A DNA stretch of 64,000 bases from a virus (lineage: Duplodnaviria > Heunggongvirae > Uroviricota > Caudoviricetes): the IMG/VR virus record IMGVR_UViG_3300026549_000001, positions 122,569 to 186,568 of that record; one strand, written 5' to 3'. A program made the translations under genes and the position numbers. Position 1 is the stretch's first letter. Each line of letters begins with the position of its first letter. Below the pieces are notes generated by a model that saw nothing but the letters and a program-made list of their open reading frames with translations, searched no databases and was not told where the DNA came from. Below, one piece after another: positions 1,018-10,177 of the stretch.

Positions 1018-2046
1018 TTATTCCACAAGGGATTCTTTTGCCTTATTAAACAAGTCCTTTTTATCAGGATAGTTTAATTCAATCCACTTGTAGAAATCCA
1101 ACTCTTTTTCAACTGGATTAGTTTCTTCGGAACTTGTTGATGTTGTTAAGGATATATTTACTGCTGTGTTCTTTGCTTGAATATATATATCGTTATCAAT
1201 ACAGTCAACATTTCCAGTATATGTTATATTATAGATATATCTACCCACATTAGATAAAAATGAATTGATGTTTGTTTCATCTAATTCCACCTTTATTATA
1301 TGTGGAGTATCAATTATTTCTCTCTTTAACTTTTTGGTTTTTGTATTGTAGAAAACCACTCCTGTATGGCTTTCATGGGACTGATAATCAATCAACCCCC
1401 CTGGAGAAATAACAAGTGTTTTTCCACTTGTATATTCAAATGGAGTGTGAATATGTCCTATAAACACAACATCAAAAAGATTGATTAGATTGTCAGGAAT
1501 ATCATACTTACTTGATAACTCTGGAAATTGTTTTCCATAAGTTTCTGTTATTCCATGCGTTAATAATATTTTAGTTTTTGCGGGTATATTTGCAAGTTGT
1601 TCACATTCTTGCCACAATTGATTAAGATTTTCAACTTTATCATATACAAATGGCAAGAGTACAAAAAGAATATCTTCCTTCTCATCGTGATAATATTCTA
1701 CGGCATATTCAGCCAACTTGATTATATTACCCCTAACTGTTTGCATTGAACTACACATAGTTTCTCTATTCTTAAAAGAGAAATCATGATTACCTAAAAC
1801 CATTAACGAGGGAACATTTATCCTATCTAATCCCGCTTGCATTTTAGATATAGCAAGAACTGATGGATTAGCAGTTTCAAACATATCTCCCGCCCATAAT
1901 AATATATCGGGAGAGTGTTTATTTATAATATCAATATATTGAGAAAAGGCTATATATCCACTTTGTTCAAATCGGTTATATGCTCCATCTTCTGTTCTAT
2001 ATTGTCTTTTATCTAAATGTAAATCGGATATAACTGCGATTTTCAT
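1018..2046 (-). CDS. sbcD: SbcD/Mre11-like metallophosphoesterase nuclease
   Basis: Motifs ISDLHL, AGDMFE, LGNHD, LTHG, GHIH; adjacent to an SbcC-like ATPase. Confidence 0.9.
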   Translation of the reverse strand: MKIAVISDLHLDKRQYRTEDGAYNRFEQSGYIAFSQYIDIINKHSPDILLWAGDMFETANPSVLAISKMQAGLDRINVPSLMVLGNHDFSFKNRETMCSSMQTVRGNIIKLAEYAVEYYHDEKEDILFVLLPFVYDKVENLNQLWQECEQLANIPAKTKILLTHGITETYGKQFPELSSKYDIPDNLINLFDVVFIGHIHTPFEYTSGKTLVISPGGLIDYQSHESHTGVVFYNTKTKKLKREIIDTPHIIKVELDETNINSFLSNVGRYIYNITYTGNVDCIDNDIYIQAKNTAVNISLTTSTSSEETNPVEKELDFYKWIELNYPDKKDLFNKAKESLVE

Positions 2047-2064
2047 ATATTCTTTCCCTCATTA

Positions 2065-3726
2065 TTAAATAGTCTTAATTGCCGTTGCTATTCTTTCATC
2101 ATGGGAAACAATTACCCATTGCGATTTGTCATAAGCAATTACATCATTTACGGCGGTTAGATTGCCACTATCTAAATTAGCAAACGCTTCATCCATAATT
2201 AAAGGAATATTAGGCACAAAAAGATTTCGTATTGCTAAAATTAAACTTAAAGCAACAATAGTTTTTTCACCCATTGATAAAGCCTGAACTGCTAATGTTG
2301 ATACAGATGATAAATCTTCATTATGTACTACTACTTTATATATTCCATTTTCTATTAAAAGTTTAGAATAGCGAGGATTTATCTTTGTAAGAATTTTAGT
2401 AGCAACAGAAGTTATGGAGTTAGCATAAACTTCTTTTGCCTGTGTTACATATTCATCTACTATATCCACACAAACCTTTGCATCATTATATTGTTGTTTA
2501 TAATTTAGCAAGTCTGTAATTTTTGCCATATCTTGAGTTAAAGTGGATAATTGTTCTTTTAAATGCGCCAACCTATCATAAAGTGCATTTGTTTCTTGGT
2601 TGTAATTATTTAAGATTGTTTGCCAATCCATATTATTAACAAATGATTTATCGTCCAACATCTTCTTGACTTGGTAATATCTTACAGATGAAATATAATC
2701 TATAAATGAGTATTGAGAATCTTGAAGTGTTTCTGATAACTGTTTTATTCGTGCTTGGTTAGCATTATTATATGTGACTTTTACAGGAATATATTTTTGC
2801 CCACAACACAAACATCTACCACTTTGTTGTCCTTCTGCTAATAGACCATCTATTACATTTTTAGGATATTTAGCTAATGGGTGGGTTTGTGCCGCCTTGT
2901 TTTGTTCTGCATATAATTCTTGTTCTACTCCCTTAAAAAAGTTATCCCATTCTTGGGGAGTTTTAATTCCGTATTTATGTAATTTTACACAAAGTTCCCT
3001 ATCATAAACAGGGGGTGACATTTGCTCTAATCTTTGTTTAATGTTGAGATATTCTGGATATGCTTGTTCACACTCTTTTGCCTGTGCTACCAACCTGTCA
3101 GAAACAAATGCTTTCTCTTTTAATTTCGCTTCGATGGTATTTATTTCTGCCTGTACGGAATCTATTTCCTGTTGGGTTACGGACTGATTACTTATTGTCT
3201 TTTCTACTGCCGAAACTTGTCGTTGATAAAATGTTTTTTCACCTTGAAAATGTTTTTTTAATGCTAATGGCTCTGCAAATTCATTTTCCATTAGGTCAAA
3301 TAAATAGTTGGTTTCAAGAACACGAGAGTTAGCTAATGAATTATAACCCCATAATCCATCAATAACAATATCGGGTATTATTTTACTTAAATGTGCTTTA
3401 TTATCTGCTCTTGAACGAGAAATCATTTGTCCATCTTTATATAACCTATATGAAGAAGATATTCCAAATTCTCTCTCGATTATATATGTTGAAAGATTAT
3501 ATTCAAAAGATAATACTATTCTACAATTCTTTGTTAAGTCGTTTCTTAAACTGTCATAATCTAAATTGCGTGGGCGTTTATCTGTAAAACAAAAAATGAT
3601 TGCTTCTATTAGAGATGATTTTCCTGTACCATTTGCCCACCTTAATAGACTTATACTTTCTTCAAATTGTACTGTCTTTTGTTTAAAACACTTCCAATTT
3701 GTAAGCTCAATCTTCAGAAGTTTCAT
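2065..3726 (-). CDS. sbcC: SbcC/Rad50-like SMC ATPase
   Basis: Walker A ANGTGKSS, coiled coil with CLCCG zinc hook, signature LSMGE, Walker B IMDEAF, H-loop VSHD. Confidence 0.9.
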   Translation of the reverse strand: MKLLKIELTNWKCFKQKTVQFEESISLLRWANGTGKSSLIEAIIFCFTDKRPRNLDYDSLRNDLTKNCRIVLSFEYNLSTYIIEREFGISSSYRLYKDGQMISRSRADNKAHLSKIIPDIVIDGLWGYNSLANSRVLETNYLFDLMENEFAEPLALKKHFQGEKTFYQRQVSAVEKTISNQSVTQQEIDSVQAEINTIEAKLKEKAFVSDRLVAQAKECEQAYPEYLNIKQRLEQMSPPVYDRELCVKLHKYGIKTPQEWDNFFKGVEQELYAEQNKAAQTHPLAKYPKNVIDGLLAEGQQSGRCLCCGQKYIPVKVTYNNANQARIKQLSETLQDSQYSFIDYISSVRYYQVKKMLDDKSFVNNMDWQTILNNYNQETNALYDRLAHLKEQLSTLTQDMAKITDLLNYKQQYNDAKVCVDIVDEYVTQAKEVYANSITSVATKILTKINPRYSKLLIENGIYKVVVHNEDLSSVSTLAVQALSMGEKTIVALSLILAIRNLFVPNIPLIMDEAFANLDSGNLTAVNDVIAYDKSQWVIVSHDERIATAIKTI

Positions 3727-3729
3727 TTA

Positions 3730-4251
3730 CTATTTCCTTACTAACCAATAATCTTTGTCCAATTCAATAATAGTAAACCCTCTCTTATTATACATAGAGA
3801 GAGAGTTTTTATTGTCTACATCTGCTACAATATGATTATGCTTATTTATTAAATAATCTAACATATAGGATGCTATTCCCATTCTTCTATATTTTTCTGC
3901 TACCATTATATTCATAAGATATATCCCCGCAATGGGTAATATCTTTGGTATCATATATGGAACAGCACCAAATACCGTATTAATGTTATCTAATAAAGAA
4001 ACAGAATCAAATAGAATACAAGCCCCAATTAGTTTATGATTATCAAATATGCCAATACATAAATTTGTTTCAAGTGCTTTTTCTACGCTTGGTGTTACAT
4101 ATTCTTCTAATTCGGCTCTATCCGCTATTTGATATATCGGGTCATTAATAAAGCAATCCAAAAATAAAGGCATTACTTGAGGCTTGTTTAATATAGTTAA
4201 ATTTTTAATGTGCGGCTTCATCTGCATTATGAAGTTGGAGGATTTTTTCAA
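3730..4251 (-). CDS. GNAT family N-acetyltransferase
   Basis: Acetyl-CoA motif VAEKYRRMGIAS and C-terminal NxxSxxMYxKRGF; start uncertain. Confidence 0.75.
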   Translation of the reverse strand: MKKSSNFIMQMKPHIKNLTILNKPQVMPLFLDCFINDPIYQIADRAELEEYVTPSVEKALETNLCIGIFDNHKLIGACILFDSVSLLDNINTVFGAVPYMIPKILPIAGIYLMNIMVAEKYRRMGIASYMLDYLINKHNHIVADVDNKNSLSMYNKRGFTIIELDKDYWLVRK

Positions 4252-5059
4252 ATTTATCTATTCCCCACCGTTCCTTATAAACTTCCTCATTCCAATTGAA
4301 ATAAGGCTTCATGTGATTATTTATTAGAAACGCCAACATAAGATTATCCTTGCACTTAATGTGAAAGCTCATATAAGCCCCCACATTATCATGCTGATAA
4401 TAATGTGCTTCATCTGTTGGTTCTCCCTTTGCATTACAAAACTTTTTTACAAAGGGTTTTCCCATATCGTGAAGAAGTCCCGCAAGTTTAAGCTCACTAG
4501 GAAGAGCCATACAAGTTTTAATAAGATGGTCTCCCAAAGATAAAGAATGATGACTGTTGTTTTGATTCATTTTCCCAACCAAAAAGAAATAGTGTCCTAC
4601 ATTCCATTTAGTCATATAGTTATGAACAATTATTTCGTCCCATCCTTCTTCTTTGTATGGAACTTCAAATTGGCGTATCATTTTCTCGTACACATATTCA
4701 GGAACTTTACGCTCCCTATTAGAATTAAATTCCTTGCATTGAGAAAGGTCGCGTACTACTAATACACAAATTTTCTGTACGCCGCTTGGAAGGGTTTTCA
4801 GAAAATTACGCCTTTTCTTGGAGTTAAGATTTGTTGCATCATATACACAACTCTCCCCGTTTTTCAATGCGGTTATTATATCTCTATGGAGATTATTAAA
4901 AACCACATTATTAACAGTTTGGTCTGTTTCATCTTTTCCATAAATAGACCTATAGGCATCCGAAGAAAAGACTTTTGCACCTATTTTTGTTTCATATTCT
5001 TTTGCAATGGTACTCTTGCCGCTTGCGGGTAATCCCACCATCATATATAAAGTAGCCAT
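4205..5059 (-). CDS. Polynucleotide kinase (AAA_33) fused to an HD domain
   Basis: P-loop GLPASGKST, YDATN, then HD motif HxxxxHL...LLHDMGKP; start placed at MATL after GGAGG. Confidence 0.85.
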   Translation of the reverse strand: MATLYMMVGLPASGKSTIAKEYETKIGAKVFSSDAYRSIYGKDETDQTVNNVVFNNLHRDIITALKNGESCVYDATNLNSKKRRNFLKTLPSGVQKICVLVVRDLSQCKEFNSNRERKVPEYVYEKMIRQFEVPYKEEGWDEIIVHNYMTKWNVGHYFFLVGKMNQNNSHHSLSLGDHLIKTCMALPSELKLAGLLHDMGKPFVKKFCNAKGEPTDEAHYYQHDNVGAYMSFHIKCKDNLMLAFLINNHMKPYFNWNEEVYKERWGIDKFEKILQLHNADEAAH

Positions 5060-5088
5060 AATAACCTCCAAAGGGATTGATTATTTAT

Positions 5089-5117
5089 AGTATAACAAAT
5101 TTTGTATTTTTTGTCAA
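5089..5117 (-). promoter_or_regulatory. sigma70/sigmaA-type promoter upstream of Pnk-HD
   Basis: TTGACA-17-TATACT on the minus strand. Confidence 0.75.
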
Positions 5118-5144
5118 TAACTGTGGTATATATAATGATTATTC

Positions 5145-5495
5145 CTATGCAGAATATTTATTTTTCAATTCATTCCACATGGAAAGTAGAGAATAAGCCC
5201 AAAACGGATTATCAATATACTCATCATTTCTAATAACCTCAAAAAAATATATTTCTATTAGGTTATAAATAATTTTAGCATCTTCATCTGTAAGAGGTAT
5301 GGTTTCATCATCATTAGAGTTTAAGCGGTTTTTTAATTGTGAACAGTTGAGAAGGTCTTGTAGCCAATCTTCAACTGCATCTTGCTCGGCATCTCTAATA
5401 TTGTTTACTCCGTATGTATATACCCCATCAAGAAATTCTATAAAGGAGGTCTTTAATTCTTTTGTAATATTCATAGTATTAGCGTCCTTTATCAT
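5145..5495 (-). CDS. hypothetical protein
   Basis: ORF track; no PLMP, HNH or RuvC motifs, so not IscB. Confidence 0.55.
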   Translation of the reverse strand: MIKDANTMNITKELKTSFIEFLDGVYTYGVNNIRDAEQDAVEDWLQDLLNCSQLKNRLNSNDDETIPLTDEDAKIIYNLIEIYFFEVIRNDEYIDNPFWAYSLLSMWNELKNKYSA

Positions 5496-5564
5496 TATTC
5501 ATAAATTAATACAGTATTAAACAAAAACTAACCCTGTATTTTGTTTTAATAGTTTGCATTTACT

Positions 5565-5737
5565 GTAAATCACTTCATAAAGATATGAAGGTAAAAGTTT
5601 CCCCTGACTGCTTATAGGCTCTGCATTGTTACAAACTGGGAAAATTCATAAGTGCCATCTATTAGAACGCCTATAAACTATGTCTGTAACCTACCCGTGA
5701 TAATACATCAAATAGTTGTACCACAAGTAGGGTTTCA
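5565..5737 (-). ncRNA. orphan IscB-type omegaRNA (HEARO-like) scaffold
   Basis: 5' hairpin CCTACTTGTGGTA/TATCACGGGTAGG; core GGCAC-TTATGAA-TTTTCCCAG-TTTGTAA-CAATGCAGAGC; long-range pair GTTTATAGGC/GCCTATAAGC; AGTCAGGGGAAAC; 3' hairpin CTTCATA/TATGAAG. Order and sequence resemble, from memory, IscB omegaRNA scaffolds. Confidence 0.65.
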
Positions 5738-5743
5738 ATTATA

Positions 5744-6172
5744 TTACAACACAATAAACTTATCAAAATCTGGATATTCCAAATAAACATCTATTGTTCT
5801 TGTTATAAGTCTTGCAAGCCCTTTTCTTATATCCATGTCGGTATAACTTTCATCACAATCTCCCAATAGTGCTATCATATTCTCTCTACCTAACACAGTT
5901 CCTTTATATGTATTATTTGCAAATCCCACTAATTTATCAATTTGTTCTTTTTTAATGGTTAAGTCGGTTTCATTATTAAATTCAAACAATCCTCTGTCAA
6001 GGCTGAACCCATACTCATTACTCATCTTCTTTTCAAGATTGCGGTAAATAAATAACCATATATCATATACGGTTGGATTTGATGTTTTTAATTGTGTGTC
6101 AATTATAGCACCATCTATATCACTTGCAAGGTCTGTTAATACTGCTTCAGCACCGCGCTTTTTGATAATCAT
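5744..6172 (-). CDS. hypothetical protein
   Basis: ORF track; GGAG RBS. Confidence 0.6.
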   Translation of the reverse strand: MIIKKRGAEAVLTDLASDIDGAIIDTQLKTSNPTVYDIWLFIYRNLEKKMSNEYGFSLDRGLFEFNNETDLTIKKEQIDKLVGFANNTYKGTVLGRENMIALLGDCDESYTDMDIRKGLARLITRTIDVYLEYPDFDKFIVL

Positions 6173-6199
6173 AAAAAGCTCCTTATGTTTTTATATAAA

Positions 6200-6229
6200 T
6201 GTAAAGGGTGAGTTTATCCCACCCTTACA
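6200..6229 (-). terminator. intrinsic terminator after ssb
   Basis: Hairpin TGTAAGGGTG...CACCCTTTACA followed by a T-rich run on the minus strand. Confidence 0.6.
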
Positions 6230-6242
6230 AAACATTAGTTAA

Positions 6243-6839
6243 TTAAAATGGAAAGTCATCGTCATCATCGGAGGTATACGGAGTGTACCCGCCGTTATTA
6301 TTAGGCGCAAAGTTTTGAGGTGCATTATTATTCTGCTGATTATTCTGATAACCATTGTTCGGATAACCGTTGTTCGGATAACCATTATTAGGCGCGTTCT
6401 GATACCCACCGTTCTGCGGATTATTCTGATAACCACCATTTTGCTGATTATTTCGATAACCCTGATTCTGATTGTTCTGTCGCTGATAACCTTGATTCTG
6501 CGTGTTGTTATTTTCAGACTTTTCAAACACAGGAGGAAAATCAAATGAATGAACCGTTACATCATAACTTACTCTTTCCATACCTTGTTTATCTATGTAT
6601 GGGTTAATTTTCAGCTCACCATTGATAATAAGAAACTTTCCCTTTTTAGCATAATCCTCTATGTTTCGCGCAACATCATTAAATGCCGTGCAATTATACC
6701 AAATTGTAGAGGGTTCTTTGTCTTTGCCATTCCATTGCTTATATGCAATTGAAAAGTTGCATACCAAAGTTCCGTTTGGGGTGGTTTTGTACTCTGCATC
6801 CCCCCCAAGAAATCCGTTTGTCTGAATAATTGCTTTCAT
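6243..6839 (-). CDS. ssb: single-stranded DNA-binding protein with long N/Q/G/Y-rich linker
   Basis: OB fold (G.LGGDAEYKTTPNG...CNFSIA, WYNCTAF, GELK), acidic tail DDDDDFPF. Confidence 0.92.
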   Translation of the reverse strand: MKAIIQTNGFLGGDAEYKTTPNGTLVCNFSIAYKQWNGKDKEPSTIWYNCTAFNDVARNIEDYAKKGKFLIINGELKINPYIDKQGMERVSYDVTVHSFDFPPVFEKSENNNTQNQGYQRQNNQNQGYRNNQQNGGYQNNPQNGGYQNAPNNGYPNNGYPNNGYQNNQQNNNAPQNFAPNNNGGYTPYTSDDDDDFPF

Positions 6840-6875
6840 TTCTGTTTCTCCTAAAGTTATACAAATATTTTTATC

Positions 6876-6934
6876 AAGGCACTATTAGTCTTTTTGCGAT
6901 TCAATCAAGCAAGGAAATTTGCTGTATGTGCCTT
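6876..6934 (-). promoter_or_regulatory. putative RNA hairpin with ACAGCAA motif, downstream of the DUF2828 gene
   Basis: Stem AAGGCAC/GTGCCTT, 2 nt, then ACAGCAA; same geometry as 8490-8524. Confidence 0.5.
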
Positions 6935-6993
6935 TGAGAATGGGAAAGGTTTTATGAATTTTCCCCATTCTCTTATTATTAAATAGGTTAATT

Positions 6994-8475
6994 TTAGATA
7001 GTTATGCAGTCATAGCGAGGATTAGACAGCACCTTTAGCATAGCTTCATAAGGGGTGCTGTTCATTATCTCAACAATAGACTTGAAGATATTGGGCGCAT
7101 ATCCCGAAACAAGCTGAACACGACTGTCAGAAGCAAGTGCGTGGAAAGTATTGTGTCGTGCATTTACATTCCAAAATACTACATTGGGGAGTTCATATCC
7201 CTTTTCGGCAAAACGCTCCTTCATAGTATCAAGGAAAGTGAAATTTCCACCCTTGATTGAATAATCATCAATCTCCATGTCGGTTATAATTACCAATGAT
7301 TTGGGCATTTCCGAAGCGGGGCAGTTAGACAGCTCTGCCGCCATAAGAATTGCCCGAAATGCTCTTTCGAGATTGGTATTATATCCTATATCAGTTCTCA
7401 TAACACGAGATACACAATCGAACAAGGTATCATCAAGGCTAACTGATGCTATTTTGGGGATTGCACTAAAGGTAAGATATTTACCCGCAAAAGCTCCCTT
7501 ATTTCTCTGTGCAAAATATATTGCGAGACCAATTGATGCACTTATAGCGGTGTCATTAGGAACACGCATACTGCCCGATACATCAGCCATAACAAGGAAG
7601 TTATTTTCTCCCTCTACGAAGTTAGGCAGATTCTTCCATTGGGCTTCAATGGTATCATCAACTTTCGTAAGATAATTAGGTAGGTTCAAATACGCCCTTA
7701 CCAAGTCATAAGGATATACTGTGGAAGCCTTAATTTCGGACTTCCCGTTATTGACATTCTCAATATATTTTTCATAGCGTTCGGTATCATTACGCTTAAA
7801 CGCATTGCGATACTTAAACATCGCCCTTGAAGGACAAGTTTCATAGTTGATGGCTTCCCATTCCTTTGCGGACATAGGAGTTTCAACTACCTTAATATAG
7901 GCACGAATGACAGAAAGGAGCTTACGATAACGCCTTTCTGTAATATGGAAATATTTAATAAACTTCTGTGCCATTTTGCGAGTATTAGCAGAAGAAGCAT
8001 TGCTTGACGGCATCCACTTGGCACACAAAGATACGGGCTTATTAAAATGCACATTTCTCCCATCATTGAAAAGAGTTTCCTTAACAAACTCCATCATTTC
8101 ATTTTCAAGGGAAGTGTCAAACAACACAAACAGGTCATCCCATCTACCCATTTCAGGAATATTCGCCATGTTTTTACGCACAATATTGGGATGATTGTTT
8201 GCAAGCTCTTTCAGAATAATTCTAAAGGTTTCTCTCTCACCGAGTCCACCCCTAATATCACGAGCATAAAACGCCATCTTTGTTGCAAGAAGCGCATCTT
8301 CACCGAAAGCCGCACGGAACATTTGAATTACTTCAGCGGAATGACGGGAACGAAGCGCACCAATAGTACCAAACAGGTCTACCAACGCGGAATGCGTGGA
8401 AGACTGTGCTAATGCTCCATTTTCAGTTCGCTTCATATTTGAAATGGTTTCAAGAGAATTAAGAAAGTTATTCAT
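6994..8475 (-). CDS. DUF2828 family protein (TROVE/Ro60-like N-terminal domain plus vWA)
   Basis: RTENGA start, FYARDIRGGLGER, GRWDDL, AKWMPS, YPYDL, vWA MIDAS DVSGSM and ITDME. Confidence 0.85.
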   Translation of the reverse strand: MNNFLNSLETISNMKRTENGALAQSSTHSALVDLFGTIGALRSRHSAEVIQMFRAAFGEDALLATKMAFYARDIRGGLGERETFRIILKELANNHPNIVRKNMANIPEMGRWDDLFVLFDTSLENEMMEFVKETLFNDGRNVHFNKPVSLCAKWMPSSNASSANTRKMAQKFIKYFHITERRYRKLLSVIRAYIKVVETPMSAKEWEAINYETCPSRAMFKYRNAFKRNDTERYEKYIENVNNGKSEIKASTVYPYDLVRAYLNLPNYLTKVDDTIEAQWKNLPNFVEGENNFLVMADVSGSMRVPNDTAISASIGLAIYFAQRNKGAFAGKYLTFSAIPKIASVSLDDTLFDCVSRVMRTDIGYNTNLERAFRAILMAAELSNCPASEMPKSLVIITDMEIDDYSIKGGNFTFLDTMKERFAEKGYELPNVVFWNVNARHNTFHALASDSRVQLVSGYAPNIFKSIVEIMNSTPYEAMLKVLSNPRYDCITI

Positions 8476-8489
8476 ATTTAATTTACCTC

Positions 8490-8524
8490 ACGATTTATTT
8501 TTTTATAGTTGCTGTTAAAATCGT
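8490..8524 (-). promoter_or_regulatory. putative RNA hairpin with ACAGCAA motif in the DUF2828 leader
   Basis: Stem ACGATTT/AAATCGT, 2 nt, then ACAGCAA; the 3' strand abuts the RBS (GAGGT). Confidence 0.5.
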
Positions 8525-8550
8525 TTTCTCCACAAGGGAGCGTTTTGGTT

Positions 8551-8579
8551 ATTATATCAAATCTCATAGGATTTGTCAA
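8551..8579 (-). promoter_or_regulatory. sigmaA-type promoter of the DUF2828 gene
   Basis: TTGACA-17-TATAAT. Confidence 0.8.
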
Positions 8580-8596
8580 GTCTTTTACAGAATATA

Positions 8597-8914
8597 TTAT
8601 TCTTTATACAATTTCAAAAAATCGTCAAGGGAAAGAGTGACTAACCAATCCTTTCTATTTGCTCTGTGAACCACAATTGGTATTTCATTTTCACGAGCAT
8701 CATTAGTGGACTGATTTAACCAAGTATAGGTTAGTCCATGTCCTTTCTCTATTCTTTTACATTCTATATGTAACCCTTCTATTCCTACGACATCTGCATC
8801 CCCATTAGAGCCGCAATATTGTTGACCTCTACGGGTATTAAATCCATGTTCGTTTAGAATGTGGGAAAGTTCTCTTTCTCCATTTTTTCCTTTTTGAATA
8901 GAATTAATTGACAT
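8597..8914 (-). CDS. Hjc-like Holliday junction resolvase (PD-(D/E)XK)
   Basis: KGKNGERELxxxL..GF, DADVV, IECKR. Confidence 0.8.
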   Translation of the reverse strand: MSINSIQKGKNGERELSHILNEHGFNTRRGQQYCGSNGDADVVGIEGLHIECKRIEKGHGLTYTWLNQSTNDARENEIPIVVHRANRKDWLVTLSLDDFLKLYKE

Positions 8915-8922
8915 ATAATCTC

Positions 8923-10014
8923 CTATATTTCTATAAGGTCTCCAACAATCAATCTAACAAATGCCGCATCAGTCATTTTAGCAAGCATTTCATCTACCGT
9001 TCTTCCGTCCAATGTTCCAAATTGGAAATGCTTGTACGGATTATTTTTAATAGCAAGAGCAATAGTTTTTCTATCTCCCTCAAGAGTAGAAACATACGCT
9101 ACCGCATCTGTGATTTCTCTCTTAATAGTAGAATATCTTTCTTCCACTTCATTTATCATCGAAATATAGTGCGGATATTGCTTTTTGATTGTTTCTATGC
9201 TAATATCATCAACTCTTAACATTAACGCAATTTCTTTATAGTCAAGACAATTATTATTAATTAGATGATGACAGAAAATATATTCAGGAGACTTAATTTT
9301 TATTCTATTATAAGAAGCATCTACTACTACAAAACCCTCATGTTCAGTAGAATCTGAAAAATTAAGTTTTTGAACGGCAGTAATGCAGTCCGTAAGGCTG
9401 TGAAGGGCATATTCTTTTGGTTTGATTATCCCTATGTTGGCTTCTAACTCATATCCTGTCTTATTATTCCGAGTACCAATATGATAAAGTAATGATTCTG
9501 AATATTGTACTACCACTTGATTTAATGGGGAAGTAAGCTCAAAGATATAAGTATAATCCTTATTGAGTATATCAAAAGGAATATTGTTATAATTATCACA
9601 ACTTTCTACTAATGAGTAAAAAGATTTACCGCTATTATGAATTGCGTTTTTAGCATCTATCATTCCATTGGTGGAAAATTGCCAACTATTAGTATACGGA
9701 TTAAACCACAGTTTAATAATAGAGCCGTCCATTTTTTCCAATACTCTTGCAGTAGACCATTCTATTTTATCCGCATAGCTTTCATGTGAATTTCCAAACT
9801 TACGAAATGGGTAACACACCACATCATAAGTAGTTTTATCAAGAATAATACCTCTTGCCTCTTGCACAATCGGATTTGAAAAATCGCAACCGATACTATA
9901 ATTAAAGATGAGAAAATGCTCATCCTCTTTAACAAGAATGCCAAGATGTTCCATCTTCTCTCTCCAAGTGTTTATATTATCTTTGATAAAATTACTAATG
10001 ATAAAATTATTCAT
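8923..10014 (-). CDS. T4 Rnl1-like RNA ligase
   Basis: EARGIILD, PFRKFGN, motif I EKMDGS, FEL, EGFVV, KIKSPEY. Start reassigned to MNNF at 10014 (RBS AAAGGGGA, overlapping the upstream ORF stop). Confidence 0.85.
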   Translation of the reverse strand: MNNFIISNFIKDNINTWREKMEHLGILVKEDEHFLIFNYSIGCDFSNPIVQEARGIILDKTTYDVVCYPFRKFGNSHESYADKIEWSTARVLEKMDGSIIKLWFNPYTNSWQFSTNGMIDAKNAIHNSGKSFYSLVESCDNYNNIPFDILNKDYTYIFELTSPLNQVVVQYSESLLYHIGTRNNKTGYELEANIGIIKPKEYALHSLTDCITAVQKLNFSDSTEHEGFVVVDASYNRIKIKSPEYIFCHHLINNNCLDYKEIALMLRVDDISIETIKKQYPHYISMINEVEERYSTIKREITDAVAYVSTLEGDRKTIALAIKNNPYKHFQFGTLDGRTVDEMLAKMTDAAFVRLIVGDLIEI

Positions 10015-10177
10015 TAAAGTATTCCCCTTTATGTTTCGGTTTTCGAGAATATTTGGTTTTATCTCTAAAAACAACACTTCTCGGACGGGTAGGCTGTTCA
10101 TAAGAAATATGGTTGCCTGGGTTAGTCCTTTCTTGTTGTTTCAATTTTTTCATAAATTTCTTTTCAGAAAAACTCAT
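10007..10177 (-). CDS. small basic protein, ArfA-like C-terminal motif
   Basis: Not in the track. 56 aa MSFSEKKFMKKLKQQERTNPGNHISYEQPTRPRSVVFRDKTKYSRKPKHKGEYFNE; RBS GGGAG; directly downstream of a consensus promoter. Confidence 0.6.
   Translation of the reverse strand: MSFSEKKFMKKLKQQERTNPGNHISYEQPTRPRSVVFRDKTKYSRKPKHKGEYFNE

Follow-up and report, generated by a model that had tools for sequence, protein, structure and literature searches.

What does a guide-RNA scaffold of the IscB type do in a phage genome at a place where no iscB gene follows it, and which nuclease could it serve? This question is raised by a 231-nt element in the window analysed here, by which we mean the whole stretch of 64,000 nt, that is C1:122569-186568 of a complete virus record (250,568 bp with terminal repeats, a gut jumbo phage). 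The element fills a 248-nt gap between ORF 5744-6172 and ORF 5145-5495, in a densely packed array of minus-strand genes with about 31% GC (Table 1). The stop codon TAA (5746-5744) of the upstream ORF falls within the guide predicted below. The downstream ORF more likely begins with the ATG at 5474, which has AAAGGA (5490-5485) ahead of it, and the distal end of the element is located only a few nt before this AAAGGA and ATG. An RNA-repair-like gene cluster surrounds the element (window 4205-10101, minus strand), and SbcCD-like genes are found at 1018-3726.

By direct reading of the sequence, the earlier note had listed a series of omegaRNA motifs and a 10-nt long-range pairing. All the motifs are present on the minus strand at the positions given in Table 1, and the pairing is there as well, where it constitutes the central stem. 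The loop of the nexus pseudoknot hairpin pairs with a strand located further downstream, and this pairing covaries, UUUUCCC with GGGAAAC in this phage being replaced by UUAACCC with GGGUUAC in the viral IscB loci L007, L011 and L012. In the omegaRNA of OgeuIscB, the pseudoknot is formed by C93-C96:G155-G158 (Kato et al. 2022, PMC9640706). The RNA fold was modestly more stable than that of shuffled sequences (z = -2.3).

Table 1. Features of the orphan element, of its relatives in the phage genome and of the surrounding genes (window positions unless preceded by C1, which refers to the full virus record)
Feature	Position	Strand	Remarks
Copy A (this window, orphan)	C1:128071-128301 = window 5503-5733	- (in window)	231 nt
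Copy B (second orphan)	C1:84520-84755		43 kb from copy A, in the opposite direction from IscB
Copy C (full element with iscB)	C1:196008-197645		69 kb from the window copy
IscB, 480 aa	C1:196022-197464		RRXRR + HNH domains; between the two homologous pieces of copy C
Complete omegaRNA scaffold	5568-5733	-	R2 match over model positions 1-177 of 177
Predicted guide, 16 nt, TTGTAATATAATTGAA	5734-5749	-	Flanking DNA, different in each copy
Sigma-70-like promoter match	5738-5766	-	TTGATA, 17 nt, TATAAT; 11/12; -10 box within the predicted guide
Guide adaptor hairpin (stem loop 1), 13-bp stem	5690-5731	-	5731-5719 pairs with 5702-5690
Central stem, 5' strand GTTTATAGGC	5669-5678	-	Pairs with 5610-5619
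Short stem loop 2 GTTCTAATAGATG	5656-5668	-	Shorter than the family consensus
Motif GGCAC..TTTTCCCAG..CAATGCAGAGC	5656-5618	-	Direct sequence reading
Nexus pseudoknot hairpin	5623-5655	-	Loop UUUUCCCAG at 5644-5636; motif conserved across the family
Central stem, 3' strand GCCTATAAGC	5610-5619	-	Pairs with 5669-5678
Motif AGTCAGGGGAAAC	5609-5597	-	Direct sequence reading
Pseudoknot 3' strand GGGGAAAC	5597-5604	-	Pairs with the UUUUCCC loop
Terminal hairpin CTTCATA/TATGAAG	5573-5590	-	Helix 7 in the family covariation
Motif GATTTAC	from 5571	-	Direct sequence reading
Deletion junction	5557-5571	-	Microhomology TTAYA / GTAA, pre-ATG sequence versus iscB 3' end
iscB relic, last 15 codons and stop, SKCKLLKQNTGLVFV then stop	5517-5564	-	tblastn; fits the C-terminal consensus ..KKCxLLxxNxGLVFV
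Distal end segment past the iscB stop	5503-5516	-	Common to all three copies
Candidate TAM ATGAA	5498-5502	-	Directly after all three copies
Downstream ORF	5145-5495	-	No family match; unrelated to IscB
Upstream ORF	5744-6172	-	142 aa, same strand as the element; no family match
Kinase + HD-domain protein, Pnkp-like	4205-5071	-	RNA-repair-like cluster
SSB	6243-6839	-	RNA-repair-like cluster
DUF2828+DUF7788 protein	6994-8475	-	PHROGs (phrog_850) label 'RNA-binding protein'; 1.3 kb from the element
PDDEXK nuclease	8597-8914	-	RNA-repair-like cluster
T4 Rnl1-type RNA ligase	8923-10101	-	RNA-repair-like cluster

By searching the phage genome at the DNA level with window 5500-5760 (minus strand) as a query, we found matches at C1:84517-84757 (88% identical, query 26-261), at C1:197466-197647 (85% identical, query 26-201) and at C1:196005-196072 (90% identical, query 194-261). 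The match at C1:84517 is a second orphan, copy B, and the other two are the two pieces of a full element, copy C, which contains an iscB gene. Copies A and B are inserted at unrelated loci with different flanking genes. The three scaffolds are about equidistant, with pairwise identities of 87.5-89.8% (around 89% between the window copy and copy C).

The complete genome, which the earlier note had advised searching for iscB, holds one intact IscB, which has its own omegaRNA. This protein aligns to OgeuIscB across its full length (E 1e-141), its residues D60, E191, H238/H239, N253, H262 and D363 are at columns invariant in 20 homologs, and its TAM-contacting hairpin retains the equivalents of G461 and Y469. 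Judging from these residues, the same phage appears to encode a catalytically intact cognate IscB. With tblastn over the phage genome, this was the single IscB, the only other matches being the relics (E 6e-4 for the one in the window). A 308-aa ORF located 1.7 kb downstream of copy B (G000:C1:81864-82790, minus strand, the same as L006:733-1659) was considered as a second IscB and rejected, since only about 50 N-terminal residues are PLMP/RRXRR-like (35% identical to IscB 4-55) and the remainder was unmatched.

Directly downstream of the window scaffold, the iscB ORF is absent except for its last 15 codons and stop. The earlier note had described an AT-rich hairpin at about 5516-5550, no iscB in cis and a next ORF unrelated to IscB; these three points hold, but the hairpin stretch is in fact the relic of the iscB C-terminus. 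The hairpin itself (within 5517-5564) was no better than those of shuffled sequences, not all three copies conserve it, and we saw no evident TnpA-type subterminal hairpin distally. Copies A and B align with the full element upstream of the iscB ATG, then jump to the last 15 codons, the stop and about 14-30 nt beyond it, with an identical deletion junction. Given this common junction and the retained last 15 codons and stop of iscB, the orphans are best described as iscB-deleted derivatives. The window copy keeps both parts of the parent, that is the scaffold and the distal ~65 nt (15 codons, stop and 14 nt). Thus, window 5503-5733 (minus strand) is almost certainly an iscB-deleted omegaRNA copy of the phage's own element. 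As far as origin is concerned, this supports the non-autonomous derivative proposed in the earlier note, ORF-less copies being found at two sites with unrelated flanks. One deletion could have moved to two sites, or the same deletion could have occurred twice via the microhomology. No match to TnpA (PF01797) was detected in the phage genome, while the controls were positive; TnpA may be supplied by the host.

To place the scaffold within the omegaRNA family, we used two covariance models. R1 was built from the three phage copies A, B and C, and it matched 77 of 80 viral IscB loci, which had been gathered via alignment of the IscB protein. All matches were on the strand that encodes iscB, and those of full length stopped about 22 nt ahead of the iscB ATG. 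A sequence-only HMM of the three copies also matched many other viral iscB loci, just upstream of the gene and in the same place relative to it. R2 was built from 77 foreign viral IscB-upstream RNAs only, although these had been recruited with R1, itself derived from this phage. On the window, R2 gave a sole match in 64 kb, end to end at 5568-5733 (minus strand), with 91 bits and an E-value of 9.3e-19. Within the phage genome, R2 scored copy C at 102.5 bits, copy A at 91 and copy B at 84.5, so that the orphans are 11-18 bits below the IscB-linked copy. In the alignment of 51 distinct family sequences, which was fitted to the model and therefore favours the structure, 92.7% of the cells were paired compared to 29-40% with slid partners, and a compensatory change was found in 40 of 47 pairs. 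What lies at window 5568-5733 (minus strand) is an omegaRNA scaffold of the IscB type, and a complete one. The identity proposed in the earlier note is therefore borne out by the full-length R2 match, the order of the helices, the covariation of the pseudoknot and the absence of iscB in cis.

Rfam gave a different picture. We obtained no match at gathering thresholds on the whole window, none at E up to 10 on 5300-6000 (HEARO, RF02033, included), and none with HEARO on the whole phage genome or on the control genomes. Taken formally, this outcome counts against the orphan omegaRNA reading, for which the earlier note had proposed the HEARO model as a check. However, HEARO is equally blind to IscB-linked copies: it missed that of this phage and 11 other viral IscB loci, and found none of the 13 tested loci with OgeuIscB-like omegaRNAs at E up to 1. 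Since it also misses omegaRNAs that are linked to iscB, its negative result is uninformative here. Our own covariance models found the omegaRNAs missed by HEARO (L005, L002 and the 11 viral IscB loci) at 100-140 bits. As HEARO missed 13 of 13 loci, such orphan guide RNAs would be invisible to standard annotation.

Where does the guide lie? The similarity among copies A, B and C begins at 5733, the viral omegaRNAs of the L007-L015 group begin at the equivalent GTCCTAC, and in OgeuIscB the guide is directly followed by the first nucleotide of its guide adaptor hairpin (Kato et al., PMC9640706). Together, these observations make 5749-5734 the most likely guide. The earlier note was right in placing the guide at the end of ORF 5744-6172, but the most likely register is 4-5 nt further downstream than it had guessed. 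Allowing up to one mismatch, we found that none of the three guides had a second target in the phage genome. The 15-nt sequence TGTTGTAATATAATT, overlapping with the guide predicted for the window copy, recurs without mismatch at C1:1451-1465 (plus strand), antisense within ORF 1061-2083. This repeat is probably due to chance, because there is a seed mismatch in an OgeuIscB-type register and no ATGAA after it, with a rough expectation of 0.01-0.1.

On the other side, the candidate TAM ATGAA is the reverse complement of TTCAT and is compatible with the NNRR TAM of OgeuIscB. The TAM of the ISGst5 IscB is TTCAT, located 5' of the left end (Meers et al., PMC10055086). The register of the element boundary is uncertain, as a weak similarity between copies runs about 13 nt past ATGAA. 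Many viral IscB elements (L007-L086) end, 45-55 nt past the iscB stop, in the reverse complement of the first ~20 nt of their scaffold, for example GGGTATTTGCAAAA... and ...TTTTGCAAATACCC. There, the similarity between copies ends exactly at this inverted repeat, with the RBS of the following gene within 10-20 nt. The element of this phage and those of the L007-L015 group are devoid of such a terminal inverted repeat.

Production of IscB omegaRNAs needs transcription that enters from outside the element, and upstream genes are biased to the same orientation as the element (Meers et al., PMC10055086). In all three phage copies, a co-oriented ORF ends in or at the guide, which fits this published need for outside transcription. 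ORF 5744-6172 is the likely source of read-through transcription into the window copy.

We then asked how common such orphans are. With R2 on 55 other IscB-bearing virus records, we obtained 71 matches, all of them directly upstream of an RRXRR/IscB ORF. Orphan omegaRNAs thus represent 0 of 71 in these records versus two of three in this phage. Many large gut phages among the 55 records (up to 268 kb) have two to five IscB genes each; every omegaRNA detected there was paired with its own ORF, and several IscB genes were without an omegaRNA detectable by R1 or R2. HEARO RNAs without an ORF were reportedly noted in 2009, and stand-alone omegaRNAs are said to have been noted in 2021. The literature that we searched contained no paper on IscB-type orphan omegaRNAs in phages.

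Relatives of the locus itself were also looked for. A blastn search of the locus against a phage database gave no match, and no close phage relative was found among viral contigs via the 142-aa ORF, the DUF2828 protein or IscB. In protein searches, the best matches to IscB and to the DUF2828 protein had 55-56% identity. Exact and degenerate scaffold patterns returned nothing from viral contigs and 25 loci from metagenome contigs; as none of these 25 matched R1, we attribute them to chance. No empty-site allele was found, and none of the viral and metagenome contigs scanned held a relative close enough to reveal one. Since neither an empty-site allele nor a close relative was found, the boundaries, the TAM and the mobility of the element are those that we infer.

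How could an orphan scaffold still be of use to the phage? Read-through from ORF 5744-6172 would produce an RNA with the 16 nt at its 5' end (5749-5734) as a guide, and the single IscB, made 69 kb away, would bind the orphan scaffold in trans. The complex would cut an insertion-free allele, in which the guide match is directly followed by the right flank (ATGAA...). The occupied locus would be protected, because it is the scaffold and not the TAM that follows the guide match there. The target would be a co-infecting related phage, or the phage's own locus after loss of the insert, and recombinational repair from the occupied copy would keep or spread the insert together with its neighbouring genes. 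We give even chances to the proposal that the orphan is still used in trans by the IscB of the phage. For the statement as a whole, that is a non-autonomous, iscB-deleted copy with this mechanism of use in trans, we find the balance slightly in favour.

Against such a use, the orphan might be an inert relic, in which iscB was deleted and the residual 231 nt are decaying, being merely co-transcribed with their neighbours. The loss of the iscB ORF, with neither TnpA nor convincing end hairpins, would fit a relic, as would the R2 scores of the orphans, slightly below that of the linked copy. The pattern of variation, however, speaks against decay. Among the three copies, 37 columns are variable, of which 9 fall in the 94 paired and 28 in the 81 unpaired columns, and indels are found in loops only. 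Despite 10-12% divergence, not one of 141 pair cells is broken, and two pairs, both in the guide adaptor hairpin, have changed on both sides. When substitutions were randomised, a mean of 7.9 cells were broken, and zero was not reached in any of 20,000 trials. If a single deletion lies behind the junction shared by the two orphans, which are about 10% apart and at unrelated loci, then around 20 later substitutions have occurred under structural constraint without a broken helix. On the other hand, the changes within the relic iscB codons tend to be synonymous (4 of 5 for A versus C), which would permit a recent deletion: part of the divergence, and hence of the structural conservation, may predate recent and possibly independent deletions. 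The absence of orphans elsewhere (none of the 71 matches in 55 records) speaks in turn against a relic. Taking these observations together, we consider an inert relic rather unlikely.

Two other roles for the RNA would do without targeting. The promoter-like sequence at 5766-5738, if real, would start the RNA at about the first scaffold base and thus yield a guide-less or regulatory RNA, either titrating IscB as a decoy or forming a structured leader that affects expression of the downstream ORF, whose AAAGGA and ATG follow the element so closely. This sequence matches 11 of 12 positions of a sigma-70-like promoter. However, such sites are at chance frequency in this AT-rich region (9 found versus 8.5 expected from shuffles), so that we treat the match as a lead only, and the sigma-70 consensus may not be that of the host or of a phage RNA polymerase. 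The same hexamers are absent from the flanks of copies B and C, and we found no precedent in the literature searched. Hence a guide-less RNA seems improbable to us. Still further from the data is a Y-RNA-like partner of the DUF2828/DUF7788 protein and of the RNA-repair genes (Rnl1-type ligase, kinase-HD). It would make sense of a structured RNA lying so close to the phrog_850 gene in an RNA-repair-like cluster, but the element is homologous from end to end to IscB-upstream omegaRNAs, its two paralogs are in unrelated contexts, one of them directly upstream of iscB, and it has neither a tRNA-like module nor an Rfam Y RNA match. Y RNAs of bacteria and phages are characterised by such a module together with a stem that binds Ro, and they partner a Ro60-like protein. 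With these paralogs, the linkage to IscB and the omegaRNA homology seen with R1 and R2, we regard this role as effectively refuted.

Coming back to the use of the orphan in trans by IscB, the loss of iscB from a copy may allow several distant sites to be served by a single nuclease. A broader proposal, which we put forward tentatively and hold to be possible though doubtful, is that one IscB and three dispersed omegaRNAs, two of them stand-alone, police three genomic islands in phage-phage competition, by homing or marker exclusion. Such a phage would be a living intermediate between two states: the transposon-bound OMEGA system, where a nuclease has a single guide in cis, and a CRISPR-like arrangement, where the guides and the effector have separate genes. 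Provided that the orphans do act in trans, IscB (the Cas9 ancestor) would be seen to work in nature with guide RNAs whose loci are distant from iscB. A selfish transposon nuclease has to take this step if it is to become an RNA-guided system with several targets. At about 230 nt per site, the phage would then also have a cheap means of protecting or spreading selected segments of its genome. Besides, the three scaffolds are compact natural variants of OgeuIscB-like omegaRNAs and show which positions tolerate change.

Among known systems, the omegaRNA of OgeuIscB from the human gut (PDB 7XHT and 7UTN; PMC9640706) is close in architecture. It has the guide adaptor hairpin, nexus stem, central stem, stem loop 2, nexus pseudoknot hairpin, linker and terminal hairpin in the same order as here, a C-rich pseudoknot loop pairs with a downstream G-run in both, and the guide adaptor hairpin has 14 bp compared to 13 bp in the phage orphan. 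In contrast to the OgeuIscB omegaRNA, the orphan has no iscB in cis, and its scaffold is shorter (about 166-180 nt versus 206), AT-rich and undetected by HEARO. It also lacks stem loop 3 between the 3' strands of the central stem and the nexus stem, has a shorter stem loop 2 and shows a single clear terminal hairpin.

In their mobile aspect, the orphans resemble the PATE-type elements of the IS200/IS605 group, which often encode omegaRNAs that must act in trans (Meers et al. 2023, PMC10055086). Like these, they have no protein gene, keep a guide-RNA scaffold and both ends, occupy more than one locus and would obtain their nuclease from elsewhere, the supply in trans being in our case what we infer. 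However, PATE omegaRNAs serve TnpB, whereas the phage orphan is of the IscB type, with a guide at its 5' end derived from the right-end side; moreover, it resides in a phage genome without TnpA, and the typical subterminal hairpins are not evident distally. In its predicted role, it would be similar to the free-standing homing endonuclease genes of T-even phages (Seg and Mob, with localized marker exclusion; PMC13565253), the insertion-free allele of a co-infecting relative being cut and the insert copied by repair. In that review, 'transposon non-restorative homing' is listed as well, its targets being coinfected phages. In the case of Seg and Mob, it is the endonuclease gene itself that homes, whereas for the phage orphan the protected site would itself supply the RNA guide for recognition, with the nuclease gene 69 kb off. 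Non-autonomous omegaRNA elements of the IS605 family that serve TnpB are thus already recognised; what is new here is that the element is of the IscB type, that it is found in a jumbo phage and that there is one nuclease to three putative guides.
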